This document shows positions 1,678 through 46,035 of a stretch of 46,035 bases of DNA, piece by piece; positions within the stretch are counted from its first letter, which is position 1, and each line of letters opens with the position of its first letter. A model generated the notes under the pieces. The model worked only from the letters and a program-made list of their open reading frames with translations. It did no database searches and was not told where the DNA came from. A program made the translations under genes and the position numbers. The DNA comes from Thermotogaceae bacterium (GTDB taxonomy: Bacteria > Thermotogota > Thermotogae > MWEM01): positions 1 to 46,035 of the forward strand of contig JAAYCF010000065.1 in assembly GCA_012744415.1 (NCBI GenBank), in the 5' to 3' direction.

Positions 1678-2576
1678 AGGTGCGATTTCGAGGACAACGG
1701 TTCTATCTTCGCGAAATTGGCGTTGCATGGCTCTGTTTAGCTCCGGCGTTAGGATTGGCGGTCGTTTTCGTTTTCATCCCCCTGGTCCAGGTGTTCTTTC
1801 TCAGTTTTACGAATTGGGATCTGCTTCGCGCGACAAAAAACTGGATCGGTATAAAAAATTACGAATACATCTTTAAAGATCCCAAATTCCTCCAATCGAT
1901 CTGGAACACGCTCTATTTCGCCGGCGTGAAAATCCCTTTGGATTTGGTGCTATCCTTGTTTATCGCCGTGATGCTGGATCGGAAAATAAAAGGGCTGCGA
2001 TTCTACCGCGCTTCCTACTTCGCCCCGGTCGTCATACCTGTCGTGGCCGCTTCGCTGATCTGGGTATGGTTGTTCGATCCCGGACTCGGCCCATTCAACC
2101 AGATTCTGGGCTTGTTCGGCATCAGCCCGATCCGATGGCTTCACGATCCCGCTTCTTCGATGCTTTCGATCATTCTCTTCTCCCTTTGGAAAGGATTGGG
2201 ATATGATATCGTGATTTTCCTCGCGGGTTTGCAGGGTATTCCTCCTACCTATTCCGAAGCGGCAAGCATCGACGGCGCAGGCCAATGGAAGATTTTTTTC
2301 AAGATCACCTTGCCGCTTTTGTCACCGGTGATATTTTTCGTCATTTTAATGGGGATTATCAATTCCTTTAAGATATTTACGGAGATTTCGGTAATGACGC
2401 CGAAGGGAGGGCCGCTTTACTCCACCGGCGTGATCGTCTTCTACATCTATCAGCAGGCTTTTGAGAACTACCGGATCGGAAGAGCGGCGGCCGCCTCGGT
2501 GATTTTGTTCCTCATGATCCTTGCGATTACGACGGTCCAAAGAAAACTCGGCAGAAAGTTCGTCGACTATGAGTAG
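1674..2576 (+). CDS. ABC sugar-type (CUT1) transporter permease, MalF/UgpA-like
   Basis: Multi-TM protein with EAA loop 'YSEAASIDGAGQWKIFFKITLPLL'. Start overlaps the dehydrogenase stop (ATGA). Confidence 0.85.
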   Translation: MKVRFRGQRFYLREIGVAWLCLAPALGLAVVFVFIPLVQVFFLSFTNWDLLRATKNWIGIKNYEYIFKDPKFLQSIWNTLYFAGVKIPLDLVLSLFIAVMLDRKIKGLRFYRASYFAPVVIPVVAASLIWVWLFDPGLGPFNQILGLFGISPIRWLHDPASSMLSIILFSLWKGLGYDIVIFLAGLQGIPPTYSEAASIDGAGQWKIFFKITLPLLSPVIFFVILMGIINSFKIFTEISVMTPKGGPLYSTGVIVFYIYQQAFENYRIGRAAAASVILFLMILAITTVQRKLGRKFVDYE

Positions 2577-2583
2577 GTGAGCC

Positions 2584-3396
2584 ATGAGAAAACATTGGTG
2601 GGTTTACGCGATCCTTTCGATCGGTCTCATCGCGATGCTGTTCCCGTTTCTCTGGATGGTCTTGTCCGCGTTTAAAACGAACGCAGACGTTTATGTTTAT
2701 CCGCCGAAATGGTTCCCGTCGCAGTGGAATTTCGATAATTTTAAACGTGTCTTCGAAATGGTCCCTTTCGCGCTCTATTACTTCAACAGCTTATTGGTCA
2801 CGGTTCTCGTAACCTATGGGCAGCTCATCGTCTCTATTCTGGCCGCTTTTGCCCTATCCCGGCTGAACTTTCCCTTTAAAAACACGATCTTCATTATCGT
2901 GGTTTCGACGATGCTGATGCCGTTCGTCGTCACGATGATCCCGGTTTTCTTGATTGTTAGCAGCTTCAAGTGGATCGATACCTATCAGGGTTTGGTCATT
3001 CCGGCCTTATTCAGCGGTTTTTCAATCATTTTCCTCAGACAGTTCTTCATCTCGATCCCGCAGGATTTACAAGACGCGGCGATGATTGACGGATGTGGGT
3101 TTTTCCGGATCCTCTTCCAGGTCATTCTCCCGAACGCGAAGCCCGCGATTGCGACAATTACGTTGTTCAACTTTTTAGGCGAGTGGCGCAACTATCTGTG
3201 GCCGCTCATCGTCACAAATACCACGAAGATGCGGACCTTGCCGGTGGGGCTGCGTTATCTCATGACGGAGGGGGGCGGGGAATACCATCTGATGATGGCC
3301 GCTTCGTTGATGGCCATTCTCCCGGTATTGTTGGTTTATATCTTCTCGGAAAAGCAATTCATCAAATCCGTGACCTTTACGGGTTTGAAAACATAA
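2584..3396 (+). CDS. ABC sugar-type (CUT1) transporter permease, MalG/UgpE-like
   Basis: EAA loop 'LQDAAMIDGCGFFRILFQVILPNAKPA'. Six-TM layout. 7-nt gap from the preceding permease. Confidence 0.85.
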   Translation: MRKHWWVYAILSIGLIAMLFPFLWMVLSAFKTNADVYVYPPKWFPSQWNFDNFKRVFEMVPFALYYFNSLLVTVLVTYGQLIVSILAAFALSRLNFPFKNTIFIIVVSTMLMPFVVTMIPVFLIVSSFKWIDTYQGLVIPALFSGFSIIFLRQFFISIPQDLQDAAMIDGCGFFRILFQVILPNAKPAIATITLFNFLGEWRNYLWPLIVTNTTKMRTLPVGLRYLMTEGGGEYHLMMAASLMAILPVLLVYIFSEKQFIKSVTFTGLKT

Positions 3397-3408
3397 GGAG
3401 GGTTACGT

Positions 3409-4665
3409 ATGAGGAAATTAATGCTTATTTTAATGGTCCTTCTCGTATTCTGCACCTTAGGTCTCTCAAAAACGAAAATCACCTTTTGGTACGCCATCAG
3501 CGGCACGAGCGGTGAAGCGCTTAAGACGCTGATTGACCGCTTCCAAACCGAAAACCCGACCATCGAAGTGGAAGCCGTCTACTCCGGCAAGTACGCTGAC
3601 ACGGCCCAGAAGATAACGGCCGCTCTGGCTGCCAACGCGCTCCCAAATGGCGGGGTTATTCCTGCCGGGCCGATTTTTACGGGGCCGCGTGGTAACTATG
3701 CTATTCTCGACTATATGTTGAAAGATCCGACCTTTGACATGTCCGATTTTTATGACGGGATGTGGGATTACGCCAAGTATAAAGGAAAAATATGCGCGGT
3801 TCCATACAACATCAGCACTCCCGTTCTTTACTACAATAAAGAATTGATGGAAAAAGCGGGACTCGATCCCACGAAACCGCCTTCTACCTGGGAAGAACTT
3901 CTCGACTACGCTAAAAAAATCACCCAAGACACCAACGGAGACGGCACCCCTGACGTCTGGGGACTCAATATGGCCGATACCGCCTGGATTTTCAAATCTT
4001 TCCTCTTGCAGAATGAGAACGATATCGTCAAAGCGATCCCCAAGAATGAAGACTACGACATCGTCCCGCTCTTCGACCAAGCTTCTGCCTTAGAAACGGC
4101 GGAATACTGGAAAACGCTGATCGACGAGAACGCGATGCCCGTGGGTCTGCACTCCCTGGCGGAAAAGCAATTTCTTGGCAATACGCTCGGGTTCTATCTC
4201 GGTACCTCTTCCCGAATCGGAACGTGGACGGGCAATACGGCTTTCGATTTCGGTGTAGGGTTCCTGCCGAAAGGCAAACGGCTTGGGATTCCGATCGGCG
4301 GAGCCGTTCTCGTTCTCTTCCCCGCTTCGAAAGACCAGATGGACGCGACCTATCAATTGATCAAGTGGCTTACCCAACCCGACAAAATCGCGGAATTCGC
4401 CATGAAAACCGGATACATTCCGATCCGTAAATCTTCGTTGGACCTTCCGGAAATGAAAGCCTTTTTTGAAACGAAACCTTTCTATAAAACCGCTTTTGAA
4501 CAATCTGAATACGCTTTTTCCTACTGGCACTTCGATGCGATGGGAACCATGGACTCCTTGATCGTGGAAGTGTTGGAAAAGATTGAACGGGGCGTCTCAA
4601 CTACCAAAGAAGGCATGAAATGGCTCCAAGAGACGACCGTTGAAGAGATCGAAGCGAGTATGTAG
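3409..4665 (+). CDS. ABC transporter extracellular solute-binding protein (family 1, carbohydrate-type)
   Basis: Signal-like N-terminus 'MRKLMLILMVLLVFCTLG' and family-1 SBP blocks ('KITFWYA', 'YYNKELMEKAGLDPTKPPSTWEELL'). RBS AAGGAGGG lies 6 nt upstream of the ATG. Confidence 0.85.
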   Translation: MRKLMLILMVLLVFCTLGLSKTKITFWYAISGTSGEALKTLIDRFQTENPTIEVEAVYSGKYADTAQKITAALAANALPNGGVIPAGPIFTGPRGNYAILDYMLKDPTFDMSDFYDGMWDYAKYKGKICAVPYNISTPVLYYNKELMEKAGLDPTKPPSTWEELLDYAKKITQDTNGDGTPDVWGLNMADTAWIFKSFLLQNENDIVKAIPKNEDYDIVPLFDQASALETAEYWKTLIDENAMPVGLHSLAEKQFLGNTLGFYLGTSSRIGTWTGNTAFDFGVGFLPKGKRLGIPIGGAVLVLFPASKDQMDATYQLIKWLTQPDKIAEFAMKTGYIPIRKSSLDLPEMKAFFETKPFYKTAFEQSEYAFSYWHFDAMGTMDSLIVEVLEKIERGVSTTKEGMKWLQETTVEEIEASM

Positions 4666-17215: not shown

Positions 17216-17252
17216 ATCCGCTCTCCTTTCTTCAATTCAAATGGCGAAAACT

Positions 17253-20200
17253 TTATCTTTCGACGTGAAAGGGCAAGAAAAAATTGTAGCGGTCGGTTTC
17301 TTGGGGGCTGAGACCGATCCATTTCGGAAAGTATTTAAAGAGGAACGGCTCCGCCGAAGAAGTGAACCCGATGATTTGAAACTGATGGGTATACAGCATC
17401 CGCATCGGGATCTCAAGTAGCGTTTCCGTATTGATGTGTCCGAACAGGTGGTCGAGGACCAAGATCGACGAGGTGTTGGAACGCGGGGCATATCCCTTCC
17501 ACCAAGAGAAAAGCGAAGCGTAGAGCATAAGGTAAATCGCCATTTTTTCTCCGGTAGACCACTTCTCAACGTCCTTCCAGGCATACTTTTCATCCATCGC
17601 CCTGATAAAGGGAGGTTTGCTGATGCGTATTTCCAACCGTTGATCAAAATAGAACTCCCATAAGGTTCTCAACGGCCACCGCAGAAGAACGTCCTGCCGC
17701 TCAGACCCTTGCCGATCGAGGGTATCGGCAATACGATTTGCGAAGCGCTCGAGGTCATCTTCGCGCGCGCGTCTCGGAAAAGAAAATTCGAGCAGCGTGG
17801 TATCTTCCGGACCCGGGCGGGAGAAACGCGCGATATCCCGCAGGTGCGCATTCACGATTTCCATCACGGAACCGATCTCTTTTGAAAAACGCGACAAGGC
17901 CGTCTGCGTTCTTCTCTCTTCCGATTGCTCATCGCTAATTTTTTTCCTGAGCCCGTTCAACAGGTGCGTGACAACTTTGTTCCCGCCTTCGAGCCCATCC
18001 TCTTCCGAAGCGTCGAAAACGGGTTCTTCCCAATTTTCCGCGGGATCGAGCGTTTTTTTCAACTCCACCCATTCGTTATCCAACACCTGCCTTTGCCGTT
18101 CGACCGCGTACAAGTGCTTTCGGTATTCCGCTTCCTTCTCTTCCCAAAGGTTATCAAGATCGTTTTTCAAAAAAATTCGGGCTAAACCTGGGATGTATTT
18201 TTTATCCCCATCATCGCAATCGGACAACGTGATTTGCTGTCGCCGCGCGAGGGATCCCAGCCTTCGCAGGGCATTTTCTTTTTCGGCGATCGATCGCGTT
18301 GTTTCTTCCCGGCTCTCTTCTATCTCTCGTATTCTTCTTTCCAAGGTTTCCGCGGACTCCACGCCCTCGGAAACCCGCTCATCCTCGAAATCCCCTGCGC
18401 CGTCCGCAGATGGGGACAGTATCGGGTCAAGCTCGGGCAACGCCCTCTTTCTGGCGCAAAGGGTCGCTCGTTCGTCAAAAAGATTCGGCAACTTGCTCTC
18501 CTTGTTTCTGATCTCCGCGATGATCTCCCAAAGAAGTCCCGGGTGCGCCTCAAATACCGACGGATCAGTTTGCGGTTCCCGCGCGACCAGGGAAAGCAAA
18601 GGATTCTTCAACTCCTCGAGAGCGTCTTCCATCTCTCGATCCGTATCCTGAACTTGCGTCTCCCATTCCGAGAGTCGTTTCTGAATCGATAGGCAAAAGA
18701 GCGAAAAGTCTTTTAATGGCACTCCACACACTTGTTCGATTTCGAAGGAAAGCAACGACCACTCTCGTTCTTCTTTCTCAAGCGCTTCTATCTTTTGCCG
18801 TAGAATTCGTTCTTCTTCGCCCAAAGAGTGGGAAAGCGCCACCGACGCTTGGATTTTTTCCCTGACGTCGTCCAGGCTTTTCGAAACCAGCCGGAAGCCT
18901 TTTTCGAGGAAGGCGCGTTTTTCACGGCACCTTTCATCGGCTGTCTCCGGGTCCGGACCCAGCGTTTGCGAGAAGATCGCCAGACGTTCCAATTGGTCTT
19001 CGGTTTTCTTCAACGCCGCGACGAGGCTATCTTTCCGATCGCGAAAAACGACACGACGGGTTTGCAGCCATTGTGTCAGATCTTCACGATACCCGCGGGT
19101 ATTCTCTTCCGAGGCGGGGCGCCCGGGATTAAGGCGAAGCTGGAGGGCATGTTCGGTTAGAGAAGGAACCCACCGCAGCTTCAGTCGCATCATCGTGCGA
19201 TATTCGCTCGCTTCGACGAGGGTTTCCGCTTCCCTGACAGATAAAACCGGTATTGGAAGCGTTGGAAAATCTTCAAGGGGTAAACAGGAAAGCGCCTGAT
19301 CCATCTCCAAAGGATATTCGGTAATCAGCGCAAAGGTCAAAAAAGGATTGCGACTCTTCCCGCTTTTGATCCAATCCGAGCCTGTTTCGAATCCTAAAAA
19401 GCCGTTTCGCGCGAGGACTGAAGCCAGCTTCTCAACTTCTTCGGGAGTACGCGAGCCGATCGAATCGGCCTGACTCGTCTCCAACTGATCGATGCGTTCG
19501 ATCTCCCGGCTGGCCTCGTATATTTGGATATGCAAACGATTACGTTTCTCATCCAACCTCTCTTTTATGAAAGGAAGCGGGCGGTTCCCGTCTAAAGATT
19601 TCAGCAATTCGACAAAATCCTGGTAAGCACGGATTTGTTCCCCGCGCGGATCTTCTTCGGCAAGCTTTGATTTCAAGCTTTCCCGATCGCCTTCATATCC
19701 CTCCAGCTTTTGACGGAGCTTCCTTCTTACCGCTTTTTGAATCGCTTGCCGCCTTTGATTCCGTTCCAGCGCGCTGATCGCCCTCTCTTTCTCGTACCCG
19801 GTCTTTTGGTAGCCAGGCATCTCACCAAGCCTTTTGTAGCGTTCCTGAAGACTGGAGCAGCGCTGCAGAATCGAAAGAGTCTCCCAAGAAGACTGTAAAA
19901 TCGTTTCCCGACGTATCTGACCGGATTTGACCGTCTCCAGAAGCGTCTCCAAGTGGTGCTTCGTCATCAGCGCCCAAGAGACCGACGCGTTACTTTGCAT
20001 CTGTGACATTGCCGAGGTAGATTCGCCGGAAGGTTTTTCATCCGCTTCGGCAGCCATACGGCGTCGTAGGGTTTCGTATAAAAGCGCTATTTTTTGTTGT
20101 TTTTCTTCGATTTCTCCGGATAACGCAGCTTCAGTTTTCTCCAACTCCGCTTTTTCGAGAGCGCGTTCTCGATGGACCCGAAGCCAGTTCTTTCGACGAC

Positions 20201-21113
20201 AGTCCGCTTGCGCTTCATCCAAACCGCAGAGTTGTTCCTCCATCCGTTGAATGTCGGTATGCGCTTTTTGTATCTCTTTATGGGTGTATGCCTGTATCGT
20301 CCGAAGGGAACAAACCGCGTCACGTAGATCTTCTTTCGCTTCATGATAGGCGCGTAGCAGAGTCATACGGGACTGAAGCCGATCCTTTAAGGCGACATCG
20401 AGATCGACGCCCCTGTTCGGCTTCCACATTCTTCTATGCGAAAAAAAAGTGGAGATCCTTTCTCTCAGATCGGTTCCTTCAATTTTCAGGCGTTTTTCGA
20501 TCAAAGGGAAAACCATCGGATCAAGGATTTTGTCGGAGGTATTGCCCAATACCTCCTGCAAAGGCAACATGCCTTCCAAAAACTGGTTGAAAGAGAGAAT
20601 CAGACACCATTCTTCCGATCCTAAACCAAATTCGCCCAATTGTTGTTCGTAAGCGGTCAAATCTTCTCGCCGGAAGGCGTTGAATCGATCTCCGTACAAC
20701 GATCTCATGAGCAGCGGCAGCTCTTCGTAATCCAATACTGACTCTCCTCGCCGAATCGGAAGGCGTTCGATATCGAAAAGTCCTTCGAGTCGAAGAATCC
20801 AGTTGAAGTATGTCCGATCCGCTTTCTTGCGGGTGCTGAAACCCAACAAAACCGTTTCGTCCTCGACCGAGAACGCGGCGAGGATATGGGAGGTCCCGGT
20901 GCATTTCGAGAACAAATCATCCACGGTTCTTGGCTGCAGGAAGGCGCCGGGAAGGATCGTCTGAAAAAAACACGAAAGCAAATAGGTTTTCCCCGCTCCG
21001 TTTGGCATCAAAATGAGCGTATTACGCCCGCCAAAGTCGAGTGTCAGATCGGGGATGACGTAAGACTCTCCGTAAGCGAGATTCAGCACGCGAAACCCTT
21101 TCAGTTCAGGCAT
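17253..21113 (-). CDS. MukB/MksB/JetC-like SMC-family ATPase (1286 aa) with atypical Walker B
   Basis: The N-terminal head 'FRVLNLAYGES...TLILMPNGAGKTYLLSCFFQTILPG' parallels MukB 'FRSLTLINWNG...[24 protein letters not shown]'. It is followed by a long heptad-rich coiled coil, a globular hinge at about residues 560-690, and a second coiled coil. The C-terminal head 'WSTGEKMAIYLMLYASLFSWW...SILVLDHLFGHIN...FQIIGFTS' parallels MukB 'LSTGEAIG...QSW...[11 protein letters not shown]...LQLIIAAPE'. Confidence 0.75.
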   Translation of the reverse strand: MPELKGFRVLNLAYGESYVIPDLTLDFGGRNTLILMPNGAGKTYLLSCFFQTILPGAFLQPRTVDDLFSKCTGTSHILAAFSVEDETVLLGFSTRKKADRTYFNWILRLEGLFDIERLPIRRGESVLDYEELPLLMRSLYGDRFNAFRREDLTAYEQQLGEFGLGSEEWCLILSFNQFLEGMLPLQEVLGNTSDKILDPMVFPLIEKRLKIEGTDLRERISTFFSHRRMWKPNRGVDLDVALKDRLQSRMTLLRAYHEAKEDLRDAVCSLRTIQAYTHKEIQKAHTDIQRMEEQLCGLDEAQADCRRKNWLRVHRERALEKAELEKTEAALSGEIEEKQQKIALLYETLRRRMAAEADEKPSGESTSAMSQMQSNASVSWALMTKHHLETLLETVKSGQIRRETILQSSWETLSILQRCSSLQERYKRLGEMPGYQKTGYEKERAISALERNQRRQAIQKAVRRKLRQKLEGYEGDRESLKSKLAEEDPRGEQIRAYQDFVELLKSLDGNRPLPFIKERLDEKRNRLHIQIYEASREIERIDQLETSQADSIGSRTPEEVEKLASVLARNGFLGFETGSDWIKSGKSRNPFLTFALITEYPLEMDQALSCLPLEDFPTLPIPVLSVREAETLVEASEYRTMMRLKLRWVPSLTEHALQLRLNPGRPASEENTRGYREDLTQWLQTRRVVFRDRKDSLVAALKKTEDQLERLAIFSQTLGPDPETADERCREKRAFLEKGFRLVSKSLDDVREKIQASVALSHSLGEEERILRQKIEALEKEEREWSLLSFEIEQVCGVPLKDFSLFCLSIQKRLSEWETQVQDTDREMEDALEELKNPLLSLVAREPQTDPSVFEAHPGLLWEIIAEIRNKESKLPNLFDERATLCARKRALPELDPILSPSADGAGDFEDERVSEGVESAETLERRIREIEESREETTRSIAEKENALRRLGSLARRQQITLSDCDDGDKKYIPGLARIFLKNDLDNLWEEKEAEYRKHLYAVERQRQVLDNEWVELKKTLDPAENWEEPVFDASEEDGLEGGNKVVTHLLNGLRKKISDEQSEERRTQTALSRFSKEIGSVMEIVNAHLRDIARFSRPGPEDTTLLEFSFPRRAREDDLERFANRIADTLDRQGSERQDVLLRWPLRTLWEFYFDQRLEIRISKPPFIRAMDEKYAWKDVEKWSTGEKMAIYLMLYASLFSWWKGYAPRSNTSSILVLDHLFGHINTETLLEIPMRMLYTHQFQIIGFTSSAEPFLFKYFPKWIGLSPQETDRYNFFLPFHVER

Positions 21114-21921
21114 CTCCAGCCTCTTTGATACCTAAATCAACCCAAGCGTCTTCTTCTTTCCACATACCGTATACGGCGCGGGCTTTTGCCGTCGGAACGA
21201 TCGTTCGCTGCTTCTCAAAGTACGTGACTAACCCTTGCTCATTCAGAACTTGAACGGCTTTGACGATCAACCCAACCTGCGAATCGCTCTTATAACTGGT
21301 CCAGTCGCCGGGTCGGATAAATCCTTCCGAAAGTCCTTCCCAATCGGAAATCCAGCGTTCCGGGACGGCGCCGCTTTCCTTTCTTGGCGATGGGTCGGCC
21401 CAACGCAATTTGGCCCCCGCGACCAGCTTCCGGATGCGCTCGAGTATCTCGGACAAGACCACATACTCCGCGTTCTCCTCGAAAAACATAAGGAAGAGGA
21501 TAGCGGTGAGGACCTCGAATAGCTGCCATCGTTTTGAGGGGAAGGGGATTTGCTTAAAAAAATCGACTTTTTTCATCGTGAAAGGACTTTCTTCCGCGCA
21601 AAAAAAATAGATCGCTTCCGCGTCTTCCCGTATCAATAGCCGGGCTTCTTCCGCAAAAACGCGGACCAAGTCGCGAATTTCGATACTTTCGAAGTAAAGG
21701 GCGTAGAGTCGAGGATCATCTTGAAAGGTGATCGTTCCCGTCGCCAAGGCGCGGGCGATCATCTTGAATACCCATCGCATTTGTTCACGGAGGGAGGCTT
21801 CCACCCTTTCACCTTCCCTAACGATACATAGGAAATCTTTATTGCAATTATACAGGTCTATTTCCGGGTTGTCAATGAAGGGTGTGTTATAATCGGCAAA
21901 GTAGACGAAAGCGCCCGTCAT
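21106..21921 (-). CDS. Acidic 271-aa partner of the SMC-like ATPase; possibly MukE/MksE/JetB-like (DUF4194-like), unverified
   Basis: Its stop overlaps the ATG of the 1286-aa gene (ATGCCTGA, 8 nt), and AAGAGG lies 6 nt before that ATG. Segments 'DLVRVFAEEARLLIREDAEAIYFF' and 'VVLSEILERIRKL...GLIVKAVQVLNEQGLVTYFEKQ' recall tandem winged-helix MksE/JetB proteins. No Shine-Dalgarno precedes ATG 21921, so the start is uncertain. Confidence 0.55.
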   Translation of the reverse strand: MTGAFVYFADYNTPFIDNPEIDLYNCNKDFLCIVREGERVEASLREQMRWVFKMIARALATGTITFQDDPRLYALYFESIEIRDLVRVFAEEARLLIREDAEAIYFFCAEESPFTMKKVDFFKQIPFPSKRWQLFEVLTAILFLMFFEENAEYVVLSEILERIRKLVAGAKLRWADPSPRKESGAVPERWISDWEGLSEGFIRPGDWTSYKSDSQVGLIVKAVQVLNEQGLVTYFEKQRTIVPTAKARAVYGMWKEEDAWVDLGIKEAGDA

Positions 21922-21954
21922 TGGGTCCGATAAGCCTGCAAAGAGATAGAAGGA

Positions 21955-22416
21955 GTGAGGAAGATCGAAGATATATTCCGAAGGTTAAAATTTCGAAGTT
22001 CGGGTCATGCCTTGGTGTGGAACACACCCGAAGAGTTTCGTATCCGTTTAAACCGCTTGCGGGAGATCGTGCCGGTCCACGAAGCTGTGATCGAAAACAT
22101 CCGATACGGTTTCTTTCTTCTGTTTGTGAAGGGGCAGGAGGACATACGTCTAAGTCTCCCATTCCTTTCGGAAAACCTCGAACCAGACGGGATCCTTTGG
22201 TTCGCCTACCCCAAAAAATCTTCGAAGAAGTACGATAGCCGCTTGAGCCGAGAGGTTGGATGGGACGCGATCCGCCAACTGGGTTACGAACCGGTACGCC
22301 AAGTTGCCATCGACCAAGACTGGTCTGCTTTGCGCTTTCGAGAAGAGCGGTATATCCGCCTGCTCTTGCGAAATAGAAATAATGAGCCGTCCGGCGGCCA
22401 TTCGGATAAGCTTTGA
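21955..22416 (+). CDS. Small conserved-looking hypothetical protein (153 aa)
   Basis: GTG 21955. The C-terminal block 'ILWFAYPKKSSKKYDSRLSREVGWDAIRQLGYEPVRQVAIDQDWSALRF' resembles a DUF3052-like pattern, from recollection only. The antisense 191-aa ORF over the same DNA is R/G/P-rich and is rejected. Confidence 0.5.
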   Translation: MRKIEDIFRRLKFRSSGHALVWNTPEEFRIRLNRLREIVPVHEAVIENIRYGFFLLFVKGQEDIRLSLPFLSENLEPDGILWFAYPKKSSKKYDSRLSREVGWDAIRQLGYEPVRQVAIDQDWSALRFREERYIRLLLRNRNNEPSGGHSDKL

Positions 22417-23518
22417 GCGCAGGACGACCGTGAAGGAGCAAACGTTCGAGTCCATCCGTCATAAAGGGTATGATATCCGGTTTCGCAGCAAACCGAATTT
22501 TGACAGGCTTTATGTTGAACTATCCACCGCCTGCAATTTTTCTTGCGAGATGTGTTTTTCCTCCGGACAGGAAAGAAAGAGCGGGACGATGATCGCGGCG
22601 CAGACAATAACGCGGTTGGCAGATGAGCTCTCCGGGTATCCGGATAGACCTGAGATCGTTTTCGCGGGGATCGGGGAACCGCTGCTTCATCCTGACTGGA
22701 GGGCCTTTCTTCTCCGATTTAAGGAGATCCCTGCAAAAGTAGGCCTTCACACCAACGGAGCGCTGTTGGACGAAGAAGCCCTGACCTTTCTGGTCGACGC
22801 GCAAACCGATCATTTGTGTCTATCGGTCGATCCGGAGGGATTTGGCCATGAGAGCGCCGAAAAATCGCTGGAAACCTTGGAAATGCTCCATGCGATCAAG
22901 AAGCGAAAAGGTAGCCTGCTTCCCTTGGTATCGATTCAATCGGTCCTCTGCTCGAAGAACATCGGAGGGAGCGACGCCTTCGGAAGGCGGATCGAATCTC
23001 TGGGGGTTTCCGAATGGATCCTTTCGAACCTCGTGCCGATGAATGCTGAGCAAGCGAAAACCGCGCTTTATCCGATGAGCCCTATCAGTTTGGCCACGCC
23101 ACTCGGATTGTCTTTTGCTTCCCGCTTTCCTTTCGCGCGGGTCCCCTCTTTTCGGCTGATCGGAGAACGTGGCTGTCCGTTTATTGACAAAAACAGTCTT
23201 GTTGTCGGCGCAGACGGTCGAATAACGCTATGCTACCCCTTTCTTCGATCGCATGAGACATACCCGTTCGGGAAAAAACATCCTGTCGCCGCCTACGCCT
23301 TTGGGCATTTTCCAGACGAAAGGCTCCTGTCTGTCTGGCAAAAAACTGATGTGTCCAGCTTTCGGGCAAAAGTTCGCCTCGGGCTCTTTCCCTACTGTTT
23401 TGAGTGCGAATGGATCGATACCTGCGAACTGATTACCCGCGGATCAACGGATTGCCACGGCAATATGCCTTCTTGCGCCGATTGTTTATGGTATCATCGA
23501 TTAGTCATGTGCTTCTAA
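22382..23518 (+). CDS. Radical SAM enzyme with Cys-rich SPASM/twitch-like C-terminal domain
   Basis: 'LSTACNFSCEMCF' gives the CxxxCxxC cluster motif, and 'FAGIGEPLLHP' the SAM-binding GGE-like block. The C-terminus 'CYPF...CFECEWIDTCELITRGSTDCHGNMPSCADCLWYHRLVMCF' is Cys-rich. The start is ATG 22382 (35-nt overlap with the upstream gene) or GTG 22430. Confidence 0.75.
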   Translation: MSRPAAIRISFERRTTVKEQTFESIRHKGYDIRFRSKPNFDRLYVELSTACNFSCEMCFSSGQERKSGTMIAAQTITRLADELSGYPDRPEIVFAGIGEPLLHPDWRAFLLRFKEIPAKVGLHTNGALLDEEALTFLVDAQTDHLCLSVDPEGFGHESAEKSLETLEMLHAIKKRKGSLLPLVSIQSVLCSKNIGGSDAFGRRIESLGVSEWILSNLVPMNAEQAKTALYPMSPISLATPLGLSFASRFPFARVPSFRLIGERGCPFIDKNSLVVGADGRITLCYPFLRSHETYPFGKKHPVAAYAFGHFPDERLLSVWQKTDVSSFRAKVRLGLFPYCFECEWIDTCELITRGSTDCHGNMPSCADCLWYHRLVMCF

Positions 23519-28473: not shown

Positions 28474-28881
28474 ATGGCGGGGTTGTACAACTCAAACTTT
28501 ACAACTTTGGCGATGGCGATGGATGTGGCCAGTCTGAGGAATGAAGTTTACGCCCACAATATCGCGAATGCCGAAACGCCCGGGTATAAACGCCGAGAGG
28601 TTTCTTTCGAAGAAAACTTCAAAAACGCGCTATCTTCGGATGACCTTCGGCTGAAAACTTCCCGGTCAAAGCACATCCCGAACTATCCGACCTCCTTCGA
28701 CGATATCGACCCGGATGTTACGCAAATAACGAACACCACAATCACCAACGACGGCAGCAACGTGGACATCGACAAAGAAATGGCCGCGTTATCCGCGAAT
28801 ACCCTCCGATACCAGACATTGACGCGGTTGATGGATTTGAATATTGTCAGGTATAATATCATACTGAAAGGAACCCGCTAA
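28474..28881 (+). CDS. flgB: Flagellar basal-body rod protein FlgB
   Basis: Rod N-terminal motif 'NIANAETPGYKRREVSFE'. RBS AAGGAGAGG upstream. Confidence 0.9.
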   Translation: MAGLYNSNFTTLAMAMDVASLRNEVYAHNIANAETPGYKRREVSFEENFKNALSSDDLRLKTSRSKHIPNYPTSFDDIDPDVTQITNTTITNDGSNVDIDKEMAALSANTLRYQTLTRLMDLNIVRYNIILKGTR

Positions 28882-29333
28882 TGTTGGACGTATTCCGCAC
28901 CTTGAACATCAGCGCGTCAGGGTTGACCGCTCAAAGAGCGCGTTTGGACGTTATCGCCAGCAATATTGCCAACGCCGAAACCACGCGTTCCGATGAGGGC
29001 GGCCCGTATCGAAGAAAGGCCGTCATCTTTAGGGAAGTTTTCGAAGAAGCGGTAGGGGAAGCCCATTACCGAGATAACCGGCTGCAAACCGATTCGATGC
29101 AGGGCGTAGAAATCGCCGCGATCGAAGCGGATAAACGGCCGTTCCGCTTGGTTTATGATCCTTCTCATCCCGATGCGAATGATGAAGGATACGTCCAGAT
29201 GCCGAATGTGAACGTCCTGCGCGAAATGGTAGATCTCATCAATGCCCAGCGTTCCTACGAGGCGAACGTGACGGCGATGAATGCGACGAAATCATTTGTT
29301 AATGCTGCCTTGCAGATAGGGAAGGGTGGTTAA
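28881..29333 (+). CDS. flgC: Flagellar basal-body rod protein FlgC
   Basis: 'SNIANAETTRSDEGGPYRRK' and C-terminal 'VNVLREMVDLINAQRSYEANV'. TAATG overlap with flgB. Confidence 0.9.
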   Translation: MLDVFRTLNISASGLTAQRARLDVIASNIANAETTRSDEGGPYRRKAVIFREVFEEAVGEAHYRDNRLQTDSMQGVEIAAIEADKRPFRLVYDPSHPDANDEGYVQMPNVNVLREMVDLINAQRSYEANVTAMNATKSFVNAALQIGKGG

Positions 29334-29335
29334 AC

Positions 29336-29662
29336 ATGGCACAATCGATAGACCCGATCGGTAGGATAGGAAGCACCAATCCGATTCAGAAGGTATCCCG
29401 AGTCGGCCAAACGCCGAAACAGGCGGAAAAATCTGAAATAGAGCCCGATTTTATGAAAATTTTACAGCAAGCGCTGGAAGAAACCAATACCGATCAGTAC
29501 GAAGCGGAGCAAGCGGCGGATGAATTCGCGGCGGGAAGACTCAGCAACATTCACGACGTGCTCATATCCGCCGAAAAAGCGGCGATGTCTTTGCGGTTGA
29601 CCCTTGAGGTACGCAACAAGATCGTCGACGCTTACCGCGAAATCATGCGCATGCAGTTGTGA
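29336..29662 (+). CDS. fliE: Flagellar hook-basal body complex protein FliE
   Basis: C-terminal FliE block 'HDVLISAEKAAMSLRLTLEVRNKIVDAYREIMRMQL'. 108 aa. Confidence 0.85.
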   Translation: MAQSIDPIGRIGSTNPIQKVSRVGQTPKQAEKSEIEPDFMKILQQALEETNTDQYEAEQAADEFAAGRLSNIHDVLISAEKAAMSLRLTLEVRNKIVDAYREIMRMQL

Positions 29663-30702
29663 TCCGTCCTTCGCGTCAAAAATGTGGTCTCTTATGCGGT
29701 TTGCTATTCCCGCTAATATTGTGGGCGGGAATGGAAGGGCTCGCTGTTAAACCGCTTTTGTTTATTCCTTACGATCAAACCCGCATCTACTTCTCCGATT
29801 TTTTCGACACGGAAACGATCCTTTCCAAGGAGCTTGCCGAAAAGCTCCAGTCGATCGTTTTTGGATTCGCCCCTTTGCCTGGGAAGACGCTTCTCTATCA
29901 ATCCGACTATGTCCGTTCCAAGATATCTCTCTACTTTCCGGAGATCGATCCCCTTATCCAATCGGATACAGTGACCGTTTCGAGAGGAAACGCGCTGATC
30001 GAAACGCCCTTGTCAGCGACGACCTCTTCCGTACCCGCGACAAAAACCTCGGAAGACCCCCCCGGCGCGCTCATCGACGCGGAAGAATGGAAGAGCCGGT
30101 TGGAGGAACACGCGAGGGTGTTCCTAACAGATATGTGGATGGTCGCGATTCCTGCGGAAGCCTTTCACCTGGAAATCATGACGGAACCGCCTACCGCCTT
30201 TTCGGAAATGCCTTGGGAAATCACTTATACCAGATTCGGGAAGAGCGATTTATTTGTAAAAATAGCCGCCGGTTCTCCCGTCGCCTCTCAAACCACCCGA
30301 TGGACGGGGAAAGTGAAGCCGGTCTGGATTAGGAATTTGGCCACGGCCGGTAGAAATATCAAGTACAAGGAAACCTTTTTGTCAGATGCGGTGGTCTACA
30401 AACCGTTGAACTACTTTGACTACCGGGATCCGGTCGTGGAAGGCGTCGCCTTTCCAAAAGTATCCAAAGCCTTCATAAAGTCGGGGACGGTGATAGAAGG
30501 CGCGTTGATTGCGAATCCTCCCTATGTGAGGGCAGGACAGGTGATCTTCGCGGTCGTGATCATCGGCGGAGTGGAAGTCAAGGGAATGGTAGAGGTTCTG
30601 AAAGACGCGCAGATCGGAGAGGTCATCCAGGCGAGGAATGTGGAAACCGGCGCCATTCTCACAGGAATCCTTGAAGAAGGTCCCGTATTACGCCTTTACT
30701 GA
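29659..30702 (+). CDS. flgA: Flagellar P-ring assembly chaperone FlgA (long form, 347 aa)
   Basis: C-terminal SAF/FlgA block 'PPYVRAGQVIFAVVIIGGVEVKGMVEVLKDAQIGEVIQARNVETGAILTGIL'. Signal-like N-terminus. The GTG start overlaps the fliE stop by 4 nt. Confidence 0.7.
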   Translation: MIRPSRQKCGLLCGLLFPLILWAGMEGLAVKPLLFIPYDQTRIYFSDFFDTETILSKELAEKLQSIVFGFAPLPGKTLLYQSDYVRSKISLYFPEIDPLIQSDTVTVSRGNALIETPLSATTSSVPATKTSEDPPGALIDAEEWKSRLEEHARVFLTDMWMVAIPAEAFHLEIMTEPPTAFSEMPWEITYTRFGKSDLFVKIAAGSPVASQTTRWTGKVKPVWIRNLATAGRNIKYKETFLSDAVVYKPLNYFDYRDPVVEGVAFPKVSKAFIKSGTVIEGALIANPPYVRAGQVIFAVVIIGGVEVKGMVEVLKDAQIGEVIQARNVETGAILTGILEEGPVLRLY

Positions 30703-30716
30703 GAACGGAGGTTCTA

Positions 30717-31331
30717 ATGAAGAAAATCGGGTTGTTCGCTCTCATCATTTTATGGATCGTCCCCTGTTTTGGGGTTTCTCTATGGTCCTCCTCAGATAAT
30801 GAAAAATTCCGAAATTTGTACAGCGACAACAAAGCCTTTAAAGTGGGAGACATCGTCACGATCCTCATTACGGAAACGGTGGATCTGTCTCAAAGCGATA
30901 CGACCGATAATAAGTCCAAAGGGTTAATCACGTCGACTTTATCGATCATAAAGAATGTCAGCAACATAGACCTCTCTAAATTTCTTCCGACATCTGTCTC
31001 CGATAGCGGCTCTTCCAGCAGCTCGAAAACGAATAATTCCGCCGAGCAACAGATGCAGGCGAAGATAGCGGCGATTATCACCGAAATCGATGGATTCGGA
31101 AACCTGACACTGGAAGGCAAGAAAGAAGTGAAGGTGGGGCAGGACCGGAGAGAGATGATTATCCAGGGTGTTGTCAGGCCGGGGGATGTCTCCGCGAGTA
31201 ACACCATCGATTCTTTCAAGATCGCGAACGCCAAGATCTGGTACAACGGAGATGTCGTTTTCGTTCAAGACCCTTCGGAACAAAGCTGGGTCAGCTATAT
31301 CTTGTCGGGATTATCGAAAATTATCTTTTAA
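30717..31331 (+). CDS. flgH: Flagellar L-ring lipoprotein FlgH
   Basis: Signal and lipobox-like 'IVPCFG'. Conserved blocks 'FKVGDIVTILITE' and 'GNLTLEGKKEVKVGQDRREMIIQGVVRPGDVSASNTI'. Confidence 0.85.
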   Translation: MKKIGLFALIILWIVPCFGVSLWSSSDNEKFRNLYSDNKAFKVGDIVTILITETVDLSQSDTTDNKSKGLITSTLSIIKNVSNIDLSKFLPTSVSDSGSSSSSKTNNSAEQQMQAKIAAIITEIDGFGNLTLEGKKEVKVGQDRREMIIQGVVRPGDVSASNTIDSFKIANAKIWYNGDVVFVQDPSEQSWVSYILSGLSKIIF

Positions 31332-31346
31332 AGCAGGTGACAGACG

Positions 31347-32357
31347 ATGAAAAAAACGTGCGTGTGTGTTGTTGTCCTAATGCTCGTTTCTCTATTATCC
31401 TTCGGCGCGTTAGTACGTTTGAAAGATATTGCGCGGTTTCGCGGCGCCCGAGACAATCAACTCTTCGGCGTGGGTGTCGTGATCGGGCTTAACGGAAGCG
31501 GAGATTCCGGTACCGTCCCTTCCACGCTGATCAGCAATATGCTAAAGAACTTCGGCATATCGATATCGAACCAAGACTTGAAATCGAAAAATGCCGCCAT
31601 CGTAATCGTGACCGCCGATATTCCGCCCTACTTCAAGCCCGGCATGCGCTTGGACATACAGATTTCTTCCATTGGGGATGCGAAGTCACTGGCCAATGGT
31701 ATCCTTTTGCAAACGCCCTTATATGGCGCCGACGGTATCGTCTACGCCGTTTCGCAAGGTCAGATCAGCTTAGGTGGCGCCGATATCAAGGCGTCGATTA
31801 ACCTTCAGCCGCGTTATACGGTCGTCGGAACTATCCCCGGGGGCGCGATCGTCGAAAAGGAAATCCCGATACAGATCGTGGATGCGAAATCCGTTAGCCT
31901 TTTGCTTTCGAATCCGGACTTCACCACGGCGGCCAGGGTATCACAGGCAATCGACACCAAATTCGGGGAACGCATCTCTAAGGCAATCGACGCATCCACC
32001 GTCAAGGTAACGGTACCCGACGTCTTTTTTGACGATGTAATTACCTTTTTATCCATCATCGAAGAGGTCGAGGTCATTCCGGATGTCGCCTCCAAAATCG
32101 TGATCAACGAGCGTACCGGTACGATCGTCATGGGGGGCGGTGTTCGCGTTGAGGACTTCACCGTGGCCTATGGAGGGTTCTATGTGACGATCCGGAACGG
32201 GAAGTACACAGCCGGAGACAATCCGGGTGTGGATAGCTCCGTGGAGAATTTGGTCAGCGCGTTGAAATCCATCGGCGCGAAACCTCAGGATATCATCGGG
32301 ATCTTGCAAGCGATGAATCAAGCGGGCGTATTGCACGCGCAAATTATCGTCATGTAA
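31347..32357 (+). CDS. flgI: Flagellar P-ring protein FlgI
   Basis: 'RLKDIARFRGARDNQLFGVGVVIGLNGSGD' and C-terminal 'LKSIGAKPQDIIGILQAMNQAGVLHAQIIVM'. Confidence 0.9.
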   Translation: MKKTCVCVVVLMLVSLLSFGALVRLKDIARFRGARDNQLFGVGVVIGLNGSGDSGTVPSTLISNMLKNFGISISNQDLKSKNAAIVIVTADIPPYFKPGMRLDIQISSIGDAKSLANGILLQTPLYGADGIVYAVSQGQISLGGADIKASINLQPRYTVVGTIPGGAIVEKEIPIQIVDAKSVSLLLSNPDFTTAARVSQAIDTKFGERISKAIDASTVKVTVPDVFFDDVITFLSIIEEVEVIPDVASKIVINERTGTIVMGGGVRVEDFTVAYGGFYVTIRNGKYTAGDNPGVDSSVENLVSALKSIGAKPQDIIGILQAMNQAGVLHAQIIVM

Positions 32358-44410: not shown

Positions 44411-44460
44411 CCCCTTAACAAAGAAAGGCATCGGATCCGATGCCTTTTTTTGTTAAGGGG
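44411..44460. terminator. Bidirectional terminator embedded in a 50-nt near-perfect palindrome
   Basis: The core AAAGGCATCGGA|TCCGATGCCTTT (44424-44447) has an A-rich 5' arm and a T-run 3' arm. The outer arms CCCCTTAACAAA / TTTGTTAAGGGG extend the symmetry. The right arm contains the stop codon of the minus-strand gene. Confidence 0.75.
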
Positions 44461-46035
44461 CGTAAAGGTACTCGGTATATTCGATCAAGGTCCCTTTCGA
44501 ATCGTAAAGGCTCGTTTTTTCCGGCTCTCCGGTTATCGCGTAGTCAAAGGTTTGAAGCCATTTGATCTCGTTTCCCTCTTTAATGGTAATTTGCGTTAAG
44601 CGGTTTTCTCCGTCATAGGCGTAAAGGGTTTGGCGAACGCGTTTTCCGGTTGCGTCGTACCCGTCGGTTCGTTTTAGGAGTTCTCCTTCATGGAAGCGCT
44701 CTTCCGTGTAGGTCAAAGCGCCTTTCGCGTCATAAGTCGTCACGCGGATCGTCTGTCCTGTGGGGTTTTTTTCTATCTTTTGAATGGCTCTAAGCGCCTT
44801 GTCCTCCCGAAATTCTATCTTTATCGTTTCGTGTTCCCGATAATCGTAGGTTTCCATTCTTTCTTGCCCGGAAGATCCGACTGATCGAACGCTGAGGAGT
44901 CGATCCTCTTCGTCGTAGGTATAGGAGGAAGTTTCCAGGACCGATCCGTTTTTGTCGATGATTTGCATAGCAGATGCCTTCCCGGTATCATCGTAGGCGT
45001 AGCGAATCCTCAGATAGCCTTCAACGTTGTCTATCAATATCCGGCGCTCTTCGACCAGCCGTTTTTGGTTTTTTGCCGGGATGGCTTCGGCTCCTTCACT
45101 CGCAGCAGATGAGGGTCCTTCGGTTTGCGTTTCGAGGGTTAAGCGTAGATTCTCCTCCATTAATCGGGCATTCTCGCTCTGCAACGCCACTATCCGTTCG
45201 GCCTGCCTTTCGACTTCTTTTGACAACCCTTGGGTTTGCGCCTCTCGGAAAGACAGCAGTTGTTGCAGCTGGTAGAGGCGGGTTTCTTTCTCCGCAAGGG
45301 ACTCTTCCAGCTTTTTTATGCGAACGTCGGCTTCCGCCAGCTGCCTCCCTTGTTCTTGGAAAGCGTCGCTCTCGATTCGTTTTCGTTCGTCGCCGATACG
45401 AACTGCGCTTTCAGAGGCCTCGAAGGTCGCGACGGTTTCTTCGAGGGCGCGAATGCGTTGTAACAGTTGGTTATTCAGCTCGGCGATATGCAGTAGCGCG
45501 TTCGTTTGATCCGACAGATCCGTTTTCGTTTTTTGTAATTGGTTTTCCAAGATTGTTTCCTGATACCGTTGCATCCGATGAAACGCGTTTTCTTCAGACA
45601 CAATCCGCTCCAGTTCTTCGGCTCGCGCTCCTGGAAACGCGAGACTGGCGCCGCTTAATAAAGGATCGGCAACTCCGTTCAAGAGATTTGCCTCATAGGA
45701 AAGGTCGAAGACCAAGCGCGTGAGGCCGTGAGAATCGAGCAGAAAACAGAACGGGAGAGTCGAAATGTCGGTGAGAAGCCAACCGTGTATCGTTCCGCTC
45801 TTACCGCTCGCGAAACCAGTTCCTTCGAATAGCAGCCTTGTTTCCCCAAAACCGGATGCTGAGAAAAGAGACTGCAGGTCGGCCGCATAAGCCGCGAAGT
45901 CAGTAAGATCCGAACCCGAGAGCGCTTCCGTATAGACGGTTATGACATTCTTTGAAACATCGAGCTGCACCCGATGAGAAAAATGCCCGTAAATCGCGAT
46001 ACTCCTCCAGGGATAGTCATAGGCGACGGATAATC
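44453..46035 (-). CDS. Coiled-coil protein with C-terminal YD (Rhs-type) repeats, N-terminus outside window
   Basis: The minus-strand frame stays open from the listed GTG 45970 to the window edge (…LSVAYDYPWRSIAIYGHFSHRVQLDV…). A central coiled coil of about 170 aa rich in E/Q/L/R follows. The tail carries about 8 YD repeats ('YAYDDTGKA', 'YTYDEEDRLLSV', 'TYDAKGAL', 'GYDATGKRV', 'YAYDGENRLTQI', 'LYDSKGTLIE'). Confidence 0.7.
   Translation of the reverse strand, partial: LSVAYDYPWRSIAIYGHFSHRVQLDVSKNVITVYTEALSGSDLTDFAAYAADLQSLFSASGFGETRLLFEGTGFASGKSGTIHGWLLTDISTLPFCFLLDSHGLTRLVFDLSYEANLLNGVADPLLSGASLAFPGARAEELERIVSEENAFHRMQRYQETILENQLQKTKTDLSDQTNALLHIAELNNQLLQRIRALEETVATFEASESAVRIGDERKRIESDAFQEQGRQLAEADVRIKKLEESLAEKETRLYQLQQLLSFREAQTQGLSKEVERQAERIVALQSENARLMEENLRLTLETQTEGPSSAASEGAEAIPAKNQKRLVEERRILIDNVEGYLRIRYAYDDTGKASAMQIIDKNGSVLETSSYTYDEEDRLLSVRSVGSSGQERMETYDYREHETIKIEFREDKALRAIQKIEKNPTGQTIRVTTYDAKGALTYTEERFHEGELLKRTDGYDATGKRVRQTLYAYDGENRLTQITIKEGNEIKWLQTFDYAITGEPEKTSLYDSKGTLIEYTEYLYAP

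Follow-up and report, generated by a model that had tools for sequence, protein, structure and literature searches.

A conserved jetB–jetC-like gene pair related to Wadjet type III, locally without jetA and jetD, in a small uncultured bacterial clade

We have analysed two adjoining genes on the minus strand of a 46,035-nucleotide (nt) stretch of DNA (contig JAAYCF010000065.1, positions 1 to 46,035; assembly GCA_012744415.1) deposited as a Thermotogaceae bacterium; this whole stretch is called the window here, and comparison loci carry short labels such as L007. The pair encodes a large ATPase of the structural maintenance of chromosomes (SMC) type and a small partner protein, which we call jetC-like and jetB-like after their nearest relatives. 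An original prediction, made from the letters of the sequence alone, had read them as a minimal two-gene SMC-family system outside any named system. Two open reading frames (ORFs) are present, one at 17253..21113 (1286 amino acids, aa) and one at 21106..21921 (271 aa as originally called). The stop codon of the jetB-like gene and the start codon of the jetC-like gene share the 8-nt overlap ATGCCTGA (21106..21113, minus strand), with AAGAGG 6 nt ahead of the jetC-like ATG, and a reading of the sequence bears out this part of the prediction in full. The same 8-nt overlap recurs in L007 and L015, and the two genes are translationally coupled by it. The GC content of the pair (0.511) is close to that of the window (0.508).

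The start of the small gene needed correction. Its orthologues are 229-231 aa long and start at the position of V40 (VEASLRE), which corresponds to the GTG at 21804 in the window. In addition, a sigma-70 promoter matching the consensus at 12 of 12 positions (TTGACA, 17 nt, TATAAT; 21875..21847) sits within the first 39 codons of the 271-aa ORF. Because the orthologues start at V40 and a promoter falls within the codons assumed to encode the N-terminus, the 271-aa ORF is too long, and the true jetB-like gene occupies 21106..21804 on the minus strand and encodes 232 aa. The promoter that drives the pair (21847..21875, minus strand) is followed by a Shine-Dalgarno sequence, GAAGGTGA (21809..21816, minus strand), which is read directly from the sequence ahead of the GTG. 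Neither promoter hexamer varies between the window, L007, L015, L017 and L012, nor does much of the spacer, and the Shine-Dalgarno motif GAAGGTG is invariant across the same five lineages, including one with a large protein 35% identical to that of the window. This invariance persists although synonymous sites are saturated. The corrected start also revises one of the two neighbour distances that had been given: copA does lie 37 nt downstream of the jetC-like gene, whereas the divergent gene upstream, placed at 33 nt, is actually 150 nt away, and this gap is the promoter region.

The promoter spacer AAATAGACCTG and a CGATTATAACACACC box ahead of the -35 hexamer are also nearly invariant across lineages (window 21847-21900, minus strand; L007, L015, L017 and L012). 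Since the box and the spacer are near-invariant while silent sites are saturated, this pattern suggests a putative regulator-binding site overlapping the promoter of the pair. In contig L008, from the ADurb.Bin062-type lineage, a second, partial CGATTATAACACACC box with a TATAAT lies roughly 290 nt farther upstream.

The 232-aa protein is a JetB-type KITE (tandem winged-helix) protein of the JetB3/DUF6063 family, as established from Pfam, PADLOC, the starts of its orthologues and an AlphaFold model. It matches Pfam DUF6063 (PF19539) with an E-value of 3.3e-13 (49.9 bits versus a cutoff of 27) and the PADLOC JetB3 models with 2.9e-11. The AlphaFold model has a predicted local distance difference test (pLDDT) score of 80, and its top PDB matches in Foldseek are JetB chains from P. 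aeruginosa (8dk1_E, 3.7e-4), E. coli (8as8_C) and N. vireti (9qe0_D), with MukE next in the ranking after the JetB chains (E about 0.02). A tandem winged helix of the MukE/JetB type had been tentatively proposed for this protein, and Pfam, PADLOC and Foldseek agree on it; the acidic character that had also been ascribed to it is only mild, at an isoelectric point of about 5.1. The closest outgroup of the small protein, at 30% identity, belongs to a complete type III operon, that of L016. We found no paper on DUF6063 in the literature, and an earlier description of such a pair may nevertheless exist.

The 1286-aa protein, encoded at 17253..21113 on the minus strand, is a JetC-type (type III) SMC-like ABC ATPase, an assignment that draws on PADLOC, BLASTP, conservation and the ratio of nonsynonymous to synonymous substitution rates (dN/dS). 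It matches PADLOC JetC3 models with E-values of 7.4e-8, 2.8e-7 and 1.4e-6, and BLASTP aligns it colinearly and over its full length with the canonical JetC3 of L016 (3e-38 and 2e-13). At E<=0.1 the only Pfam matches of the two proteins are DUF6063, DUF2398, SbcC_Walker_B and AAA_23, of which SbcC_Walker_B is sub-threshold (E=0.034, 14.8 bits versus a cutoff of 27), and NCBIfam returned only weak ABC-transporter matches for the pair. A sequence search of the PDB with the large protein and with a 5-sequence profile gave no significant match and no MukB or type I/II JetC relative.

The motifs that had been read in the large protein, namely a P-loop, WSTGEK and a Walker B motif, were all found. 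The Walker A motif or P-loop, PNGAGKT, covers residues 37-43 (20985..21005, minus strand); the ABC signature-like WSTGEK covers residues 1185-1190 (17544..17561, minus strand); and Walker B covers residues 1217-1222 (17448..17465, minus strand), where ILVLD (1217-1221) is followed by His without a catalytic Glu. The window clade and the JetC3 of L016 have the P-loop residues P, N, G, G, K and T without exception, and the corresponding sequence of the Pontibacillus JetC3 is ENGGGKT. The signature of canonical type III JetC is KWSGGEQ or SWSGGEK. Across the clade, the core residues G-GKT, W-S-G-E and the Walker B Asp, which are split between the N- and C-terminal heads, are invariant, and the residue next to the Walker B Asp is His or Asn in place of a catalytic Glu. 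Canonical type III JetC (L016, Pontibacillus) reads ADNPFG at this position, and all five type III JetC proteins with a C-terminal head that we examined carry hhhD-N/H followed by P/L-F-G, without the catalytic Glu and with a conserved Glu nine residues after Walker B. The JetC of L025 ends before the Walker B region and was left out of this comparison, for which the sites were L016:6741-10937, L027:4711-9828 and window 17448-17465. The missing Walker B Glu is thus a trait of the type III family and not a degeneration of the window copy, because canonical type III JetC shares the D-N. The H-loop His is missing from L016 and the window clade and is kept in the Pontibacillus JetC. We had considered a clade-specific, ATPase-dead SMC that had lost the Walker B Glu, the D-loop Asp and the H-loop His, and rejected it since canonical type III JetC has the same D-N and L016 is also without the H-loop His.

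The SMC layout that had been proposed for the large protein agrees with its identity profile. Compared with a 35%-identical orthologue, identity is about 50% in the heads, 37% in the hinge and about 25% in the arms, and it reaches 74% over the first 50 residues and 62-69% over the last 85. An SMC-type protein would be expected to show such a gradient, with heads above hinge above arms. An AlphaFold model of residues 500-760 (pLDDT 71) shows an alpha/beta domain between helices of about 37 and 90 residues, and the putative hinge is placed in this domain, at residues about 556-665 (19119..19448, minus strand). The best Foldseek match of the hinge model, the P. furiosus Smc hinge, is not significant (E=0.09, probability 0.63). 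The window protein and the JetC3 of L016 have the hinge motif GF..F..G...NP in common.

Wadjet type III is itself largely uncharacterised (bioRxiv 10.1101/2025.03.10.642339). In the canonical operons of L016, L024, L025 and a Pontibacillus plasmid, the gene order is jetD3-jetA3-jetB3-jetC3; the operon on the Pontibacillus plasmid is annotated as JetD / hypothetical / DUF6063 / hypothetical, and the JetA of L025 is 57% identical to that of L016. The complete operon of L016 lies in a metagenome-assembled genome (MAG) with the same taxonomic label as the carriers of the pair. Profile, sequence and fold all mark the two proteins of the window as homologues of JetB3 and JetC3. The genes likewise run jetB then jetC with overlapping stop and start, and the head motifs are the same, including a Walker B with D-N/H and no Glu. 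At the family level, therefore, the claim that the pair fits no named system fails, as DUF6063/JetB3 and JetC3 are Wadjet type III. Nor does the small protein stand outside characterised families, its nearest relatives being found in complete jetD-jetA-jetB-jetC operons, and this is the first of the outcomes that the original prediction had itself named as speaking against it. The second such outcome, a truncated Wadjet derivative, is borne out in part.

The differences from Wadjet type III are nevertheless considerable. Type III profile scores of the pair are much weaker (28.7 bits for the large protein against JetC3 and 41.3 bits for the small protein against JetB3, versus 212 and 62 for the canonical L016 proteins in PADLOC), and the JetC of the window, at 1286 aa, is about 110-420 aa shorter than the canonical ones examined (1398 and 1705 aa). 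The pair has its own consensus promoter and occupies a housekeeping site rather than a mobile or defence context. It is locally without the JetA kleisin and the JetD Toprim nuclease. Neither tblastn nor profile hidden Markov model (HMM) searches (--max) found a trace of JetA3 or JetD3, whether in the 46-kb window or at the 13 orthologous loci searched. On Pfam annotation, the window and the 10 kb past its left end, about 56 kb of genome in all, gave housekeeping genes only and no JetA or JetD. Only the complete operons of L016 and L025 showed JetD_C (PF09983). The pair has no adjoining kleisin or nuclease gene and no partner gene of kleisin size, so that on this point tblastn, HMM searches and Pfam annotation all confirm what had been predicted. 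We do not file the pair as a Wadjet system, because two of the defining features, JetA and JetD, fail locally.

Two ORFs upstream of the pair were considered in this connection, and neither has a JetA match in Pfam or PADLOC. A 191-aa minus-strand ORF (21887..22462) was examined as a kleisin remnant; it has no family match, the 153-aa ORF on the opposite strand is a conserved gene, and the 191-aa ORF is spurious. The divergent 153-aa protein was considered as a third component and rejected; it has no kleisin features, and the L015/L008 lineage is without it while the pair is intact. The 153-aa gene (21955-22416, plus strand) is 55% identical in L012/L013 and has no match in Pfam, NCBIfam or PADLOC, and the beginning of a radical-SAM/SPASM gene overlaps it at the 3' end.

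The local lack of JetA and JetD could also mean that jetA and jetD are encoded elsewhere in the genome and that an ordinary plasmid-cleaving JetABCD complex forms from a split but complete Wadjet. This explanation, the main rival, which we judge unlikely and yet take seriously, would accord with the fact that KITEs are known to act only through kleisin, and the strong purifying selection seen on both genes would follow from a canonical complex that still assembles. The inspected portion of the genome, about 56 kb, leaves room for it, and so does the very good conservation of the extreme C-terminal head (62-69%), given that the kleisin cap interface of canonical SMCs lies on the head (bioRxiv 10.1101/2025.03.10.642339). 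Set against these points, the window, the 10 kb past its left end and the orthologous loci give no JetA or JetD signal, the complete type III systems examined keep their four genes contiguous, and the pair owns a conserved promoter directly upstream of jetB. A scan of species-representative MAGs adds weak evidence in the same direction: those with the pair (L014, L015) have no second match to two peptide patterns, that is, no second JetB3-type locus within the limits of the patterns and of MAG completeness. The two patterns were derived from an alignment including the L016-type JetB; a broad DUF6063 alignment was too diverse to yield locus-search patterns. Conversely, the full-operon MAG L016 showed no pair-only copy in the species-representative scan.

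Among other systems with long coiled-coil ATPases, the MukBEF/MksBEF complexes share with the pair an SMC-like ATPase combined with a tandem winged-helix KITE, and the fold of the small protein is near that of MukE. The chromosomal, vertically inherited context would also fit a housekeeping role. The pair differs from them in being without an adjacent MukF/MksF, and neither Pfam nor NCBIfam scans gave a MukB or MukE family. Lamassu resembles the pair as a small operon with an SMC-like ATPase and no kleisin, but there is no PADLOC LmuB match and no LmuA-type effector gene, the ATPase of the window has a JetB-type KITE as its partner and is roughly double the size. RecN and Rad50/SbcC have no KITE partner, and Rad50/SbcC pair with the Mre11/SbcD nuclease; no SbcD/Mre11 phosphoesterase gene occurs near the pair in the annotated flanks. 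The pair falls outside MukBEF/MksBEF, Lamassu and SbcCD alike.

The pair occupies the same syntenic site (oadA and a PUA-methyltransferase gene on one side of the jetB-like and jetC-like genes, copA and ahpC on the other) in at least four lineages, in keeping with the expectation that it would be conserved in other genomes. In the window species it was found in more than 100 assembly blocks. The L007/L014 group shares 75% (small protein) and 68% (large protein) identity with the window, the ADurb.Bin062 group (L015, L008, L021, L023) 68% and 62%, and L012/L013 47% and 35%. In the ADurb.Bin062 group both flanks are rearranged and the radical-SAM and 153-aa genes are gone, and the pair is intact. 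In this lineage the jetC-like gene and copA are set apart by a 6-kb insert of transposase and nuclease genes (L015:14729-20195), which encodes an SNase-Ada zinc-finger protein, DDE_5 and YhgA-like transposases, and an ATPase with Mrr_cat. Contig L017 (L017:1-3416, Ga0172362_10046427) is a mosaic: bases 1-1700, which cover the 153-aa gene, the jetB-like gene and the start of the jetC-like gene, are 85-95% identical to L007, and bases 1800-3416 match the window at 98-99.5% identity. Such a mosaic is either an assembly chimera that joined two co-occurring species or the product of recombination within the N-terminal head.

Pairwise comparisons give a dN/dS of 0.10-0.18 for the small gene and of 0.16-0.18 for the large one, compared with 0.10 for the neighbouring PUA-methyltransferase gene; these values are approximate because dS, at 1.2-1.7, is near saturation. 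On these sequence comparisons the pair has been inherited vertically and is kept under purifying selection. This bears directly on the view that the pair is a non-functional remnant, a truncated defence operon that is decaying and no longer serves any function. Of the four genes that Wadjet requires, two are indeed missing, and the pair evolves faster than its neighbours, with a dN of 0.70 for the large gene over the same divergence that gives about 0.30 for the PUA-methyltransferase gene. Furthermore, one MAG copy (L014:11423-11690, CAZMHO010000002.1) has an 8-nt frameshifting indel in the large gene. We judged this indel against the JGI contig L007, which is 99.6% identical and has an intact 1290-aa gene, and which for its part has a split copA; the indel and the split copA may be assembly errors or real polymorphism. 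A decaying locus is hard to reconcile, however, with 3.9-kb and 0.7-kb ORFs that are intact in the window, L007, L015 and L012/L013, with full-length tblastn matches to the pair in L021 and L023, or with dN/dS values of 0.10-0.18, on which the prediction that the pair is not decaying holds. The promoter, the Shine-Dalgarno sequence and the overlap are likewise conserved despite saturated silent sites, and conservation follows the domain structure, from heads through hinge to arms. A remnant of this kind is thus largely refuted already, and we consider it very improbable.

The distribution of the pair is narrow. A profile of the small protein gave 6 matches among 1.84 billion representative proteins, half of them canonical JetB3-like, and 3 loci came out of the genome scan and 8 out of the metagenome scan. 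Such a handful of loci is not what one would expect of an ancestral two-gene SMC and KITE family, sister to Wadjet III, that never had a kleisin or a nuclease, which is the view nearest to the original prediction. The long branch of the pair, its weak type III scores and the lack of any detectable remnant of jetA or jetD would all be compatible with such an origin. The motifs shared with type III JetC (the D-N/H Walker B, FG and KWSxGE) speak against it, as does the position of the nearest relative in a complete operon, in a MAG with the same taxonomic label, and we regard an ancestral pair as quite improbable.

Based on this evidence, we favour the reading that the pair is a selectively kept, locally nuclease-less and apparently kleisin-less jetBC derivative of Wadjet type III, and we put the probability of this whole statement, including the mechanism outlined below, at roughly 55%. 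The clade keeps jetB and jetC only, at a fixed chromosomal site, translationally coupled behind a conserved promoter and under purifying selection. Since the canonical order is jetD-jetA-jetB-jetC, one 5' deletion could remove the nuclease and the kleisin together. A single deletion of the 5' half of an operon may accordingly have taken jetD and jetA, after which the surviving jetB and jetC would have been retained for a useful function and would have diverged fast from canonical JetB and JetC. With JetD missing, plasmid cleavage would be ruled out for the pair alone.

In kleisin-less SMC relatives such as RecN and Rad50/SbcC, a long coiled-coil ABC ATPase acts on DNA without kleisin, and this serves as a working analogy for JetC alone. 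By this analogy, a hinge-dimerised JetC-like ATPase would bind ATP, engage its heads and clamp or bridge DNA. A dimer of the JetB-like protein, kept stoichiometric by the coupling, might act directly on the heads or on DNA. Such an activity would bind, compact or silence DNA without cutting it, be it the chromosome or incoming DNA, and would not amount to restriction. More tentatively, it is possible, if on the whole doubtful, that JetB and JetC evolved a direct partnership after the loss of jetD and jetA and were exapted as a kleisin-independent SMC-KITE machine to organise DNA or silence episomes, a role that would be inherited with the chromosome and involve no nuclease.

Several points weigh against the reading of the pair as a jetBC derivative. 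Every KITE protein characterised so far binds a kleisin through the middle portion of the latter (bioRxiv 10.1101/2025.03.10.642339), and because KITEs attach via the kleisin, a kleisin-less JetB has no known route onto JetC. The direction of the change, loss as opposed to an ancestral two-gene state, is derived from the distribution and not from a rooted tree. An unlinked jetA or jetD gene may exist, given the roughly 56 kb of genome inspected, and a protein-database search with JetA returned only relatives of at least 57% identity, all from the full-operon clade; this search carries little weight because its reach ended at that identity. The near-saturation of dS and the frameshifted copy in L014 also belong on this side.

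The pair is set among genes of ordinary cellular function. Upstream of it lie the divergent, conserved 153-aa gene and then the radical-SAM/SPASM gene, and the flanks as a whole include mfd, sugar ABC transport genes, NAD synthase, ahpC, copA, oadA, speDE, flagellar rod/ring genes, ligA, rpe, rsgA and cinA. As these neighbours are housekeeping genes, the pair is not in a defence island, a setting that the original prediction had asked about. The gap between the jetC-like gene and copA (17216-17252) has no terminator-like structure and measures 40 nt in L012; copA may be co-transcribed with the pair in most lineages, since the gap is short, lacks such a structure and is similar in L012. At the right edge of the window, a 505-aa ORF (44453-45970, minus strand) has a weak RHS-repeat match (4.5e-6) and may be part of a toxin-delivery protein. 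Positions 28474-32357 of the window encode FlgH (L-ring) and FlgI (P-ring) beside FlgB, FlgC, FliE and FlgA. The Thermotogae/Thermotogaceae label of the MAGs (L014-L016) may be imprecise because the window encodes both FlgH and FlgI.

In current SMC models the kleisin closes the ring and is the sole tether of the KITE subunits. If a pair in this small, uncultured clade has long been kept by selection without kleisin and nuclease, it would test this ring rule, offer a natural minimal system of an SMC-like ATPase and a KITE, and surprise specialists. Should a kleisin be encoded elsewhere in the genome, the pair would be an unusually split Wadjet III of limited interest. Defence-system finders that require all four genes will miss jetBC derivatives. 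If the favoured reading is true, the pair is a concrete case of a defence system that was stripped of its effector and then domesticated, and, if JetB and JetC do act together directly, it would be the first natural KITE working without a kleisin.

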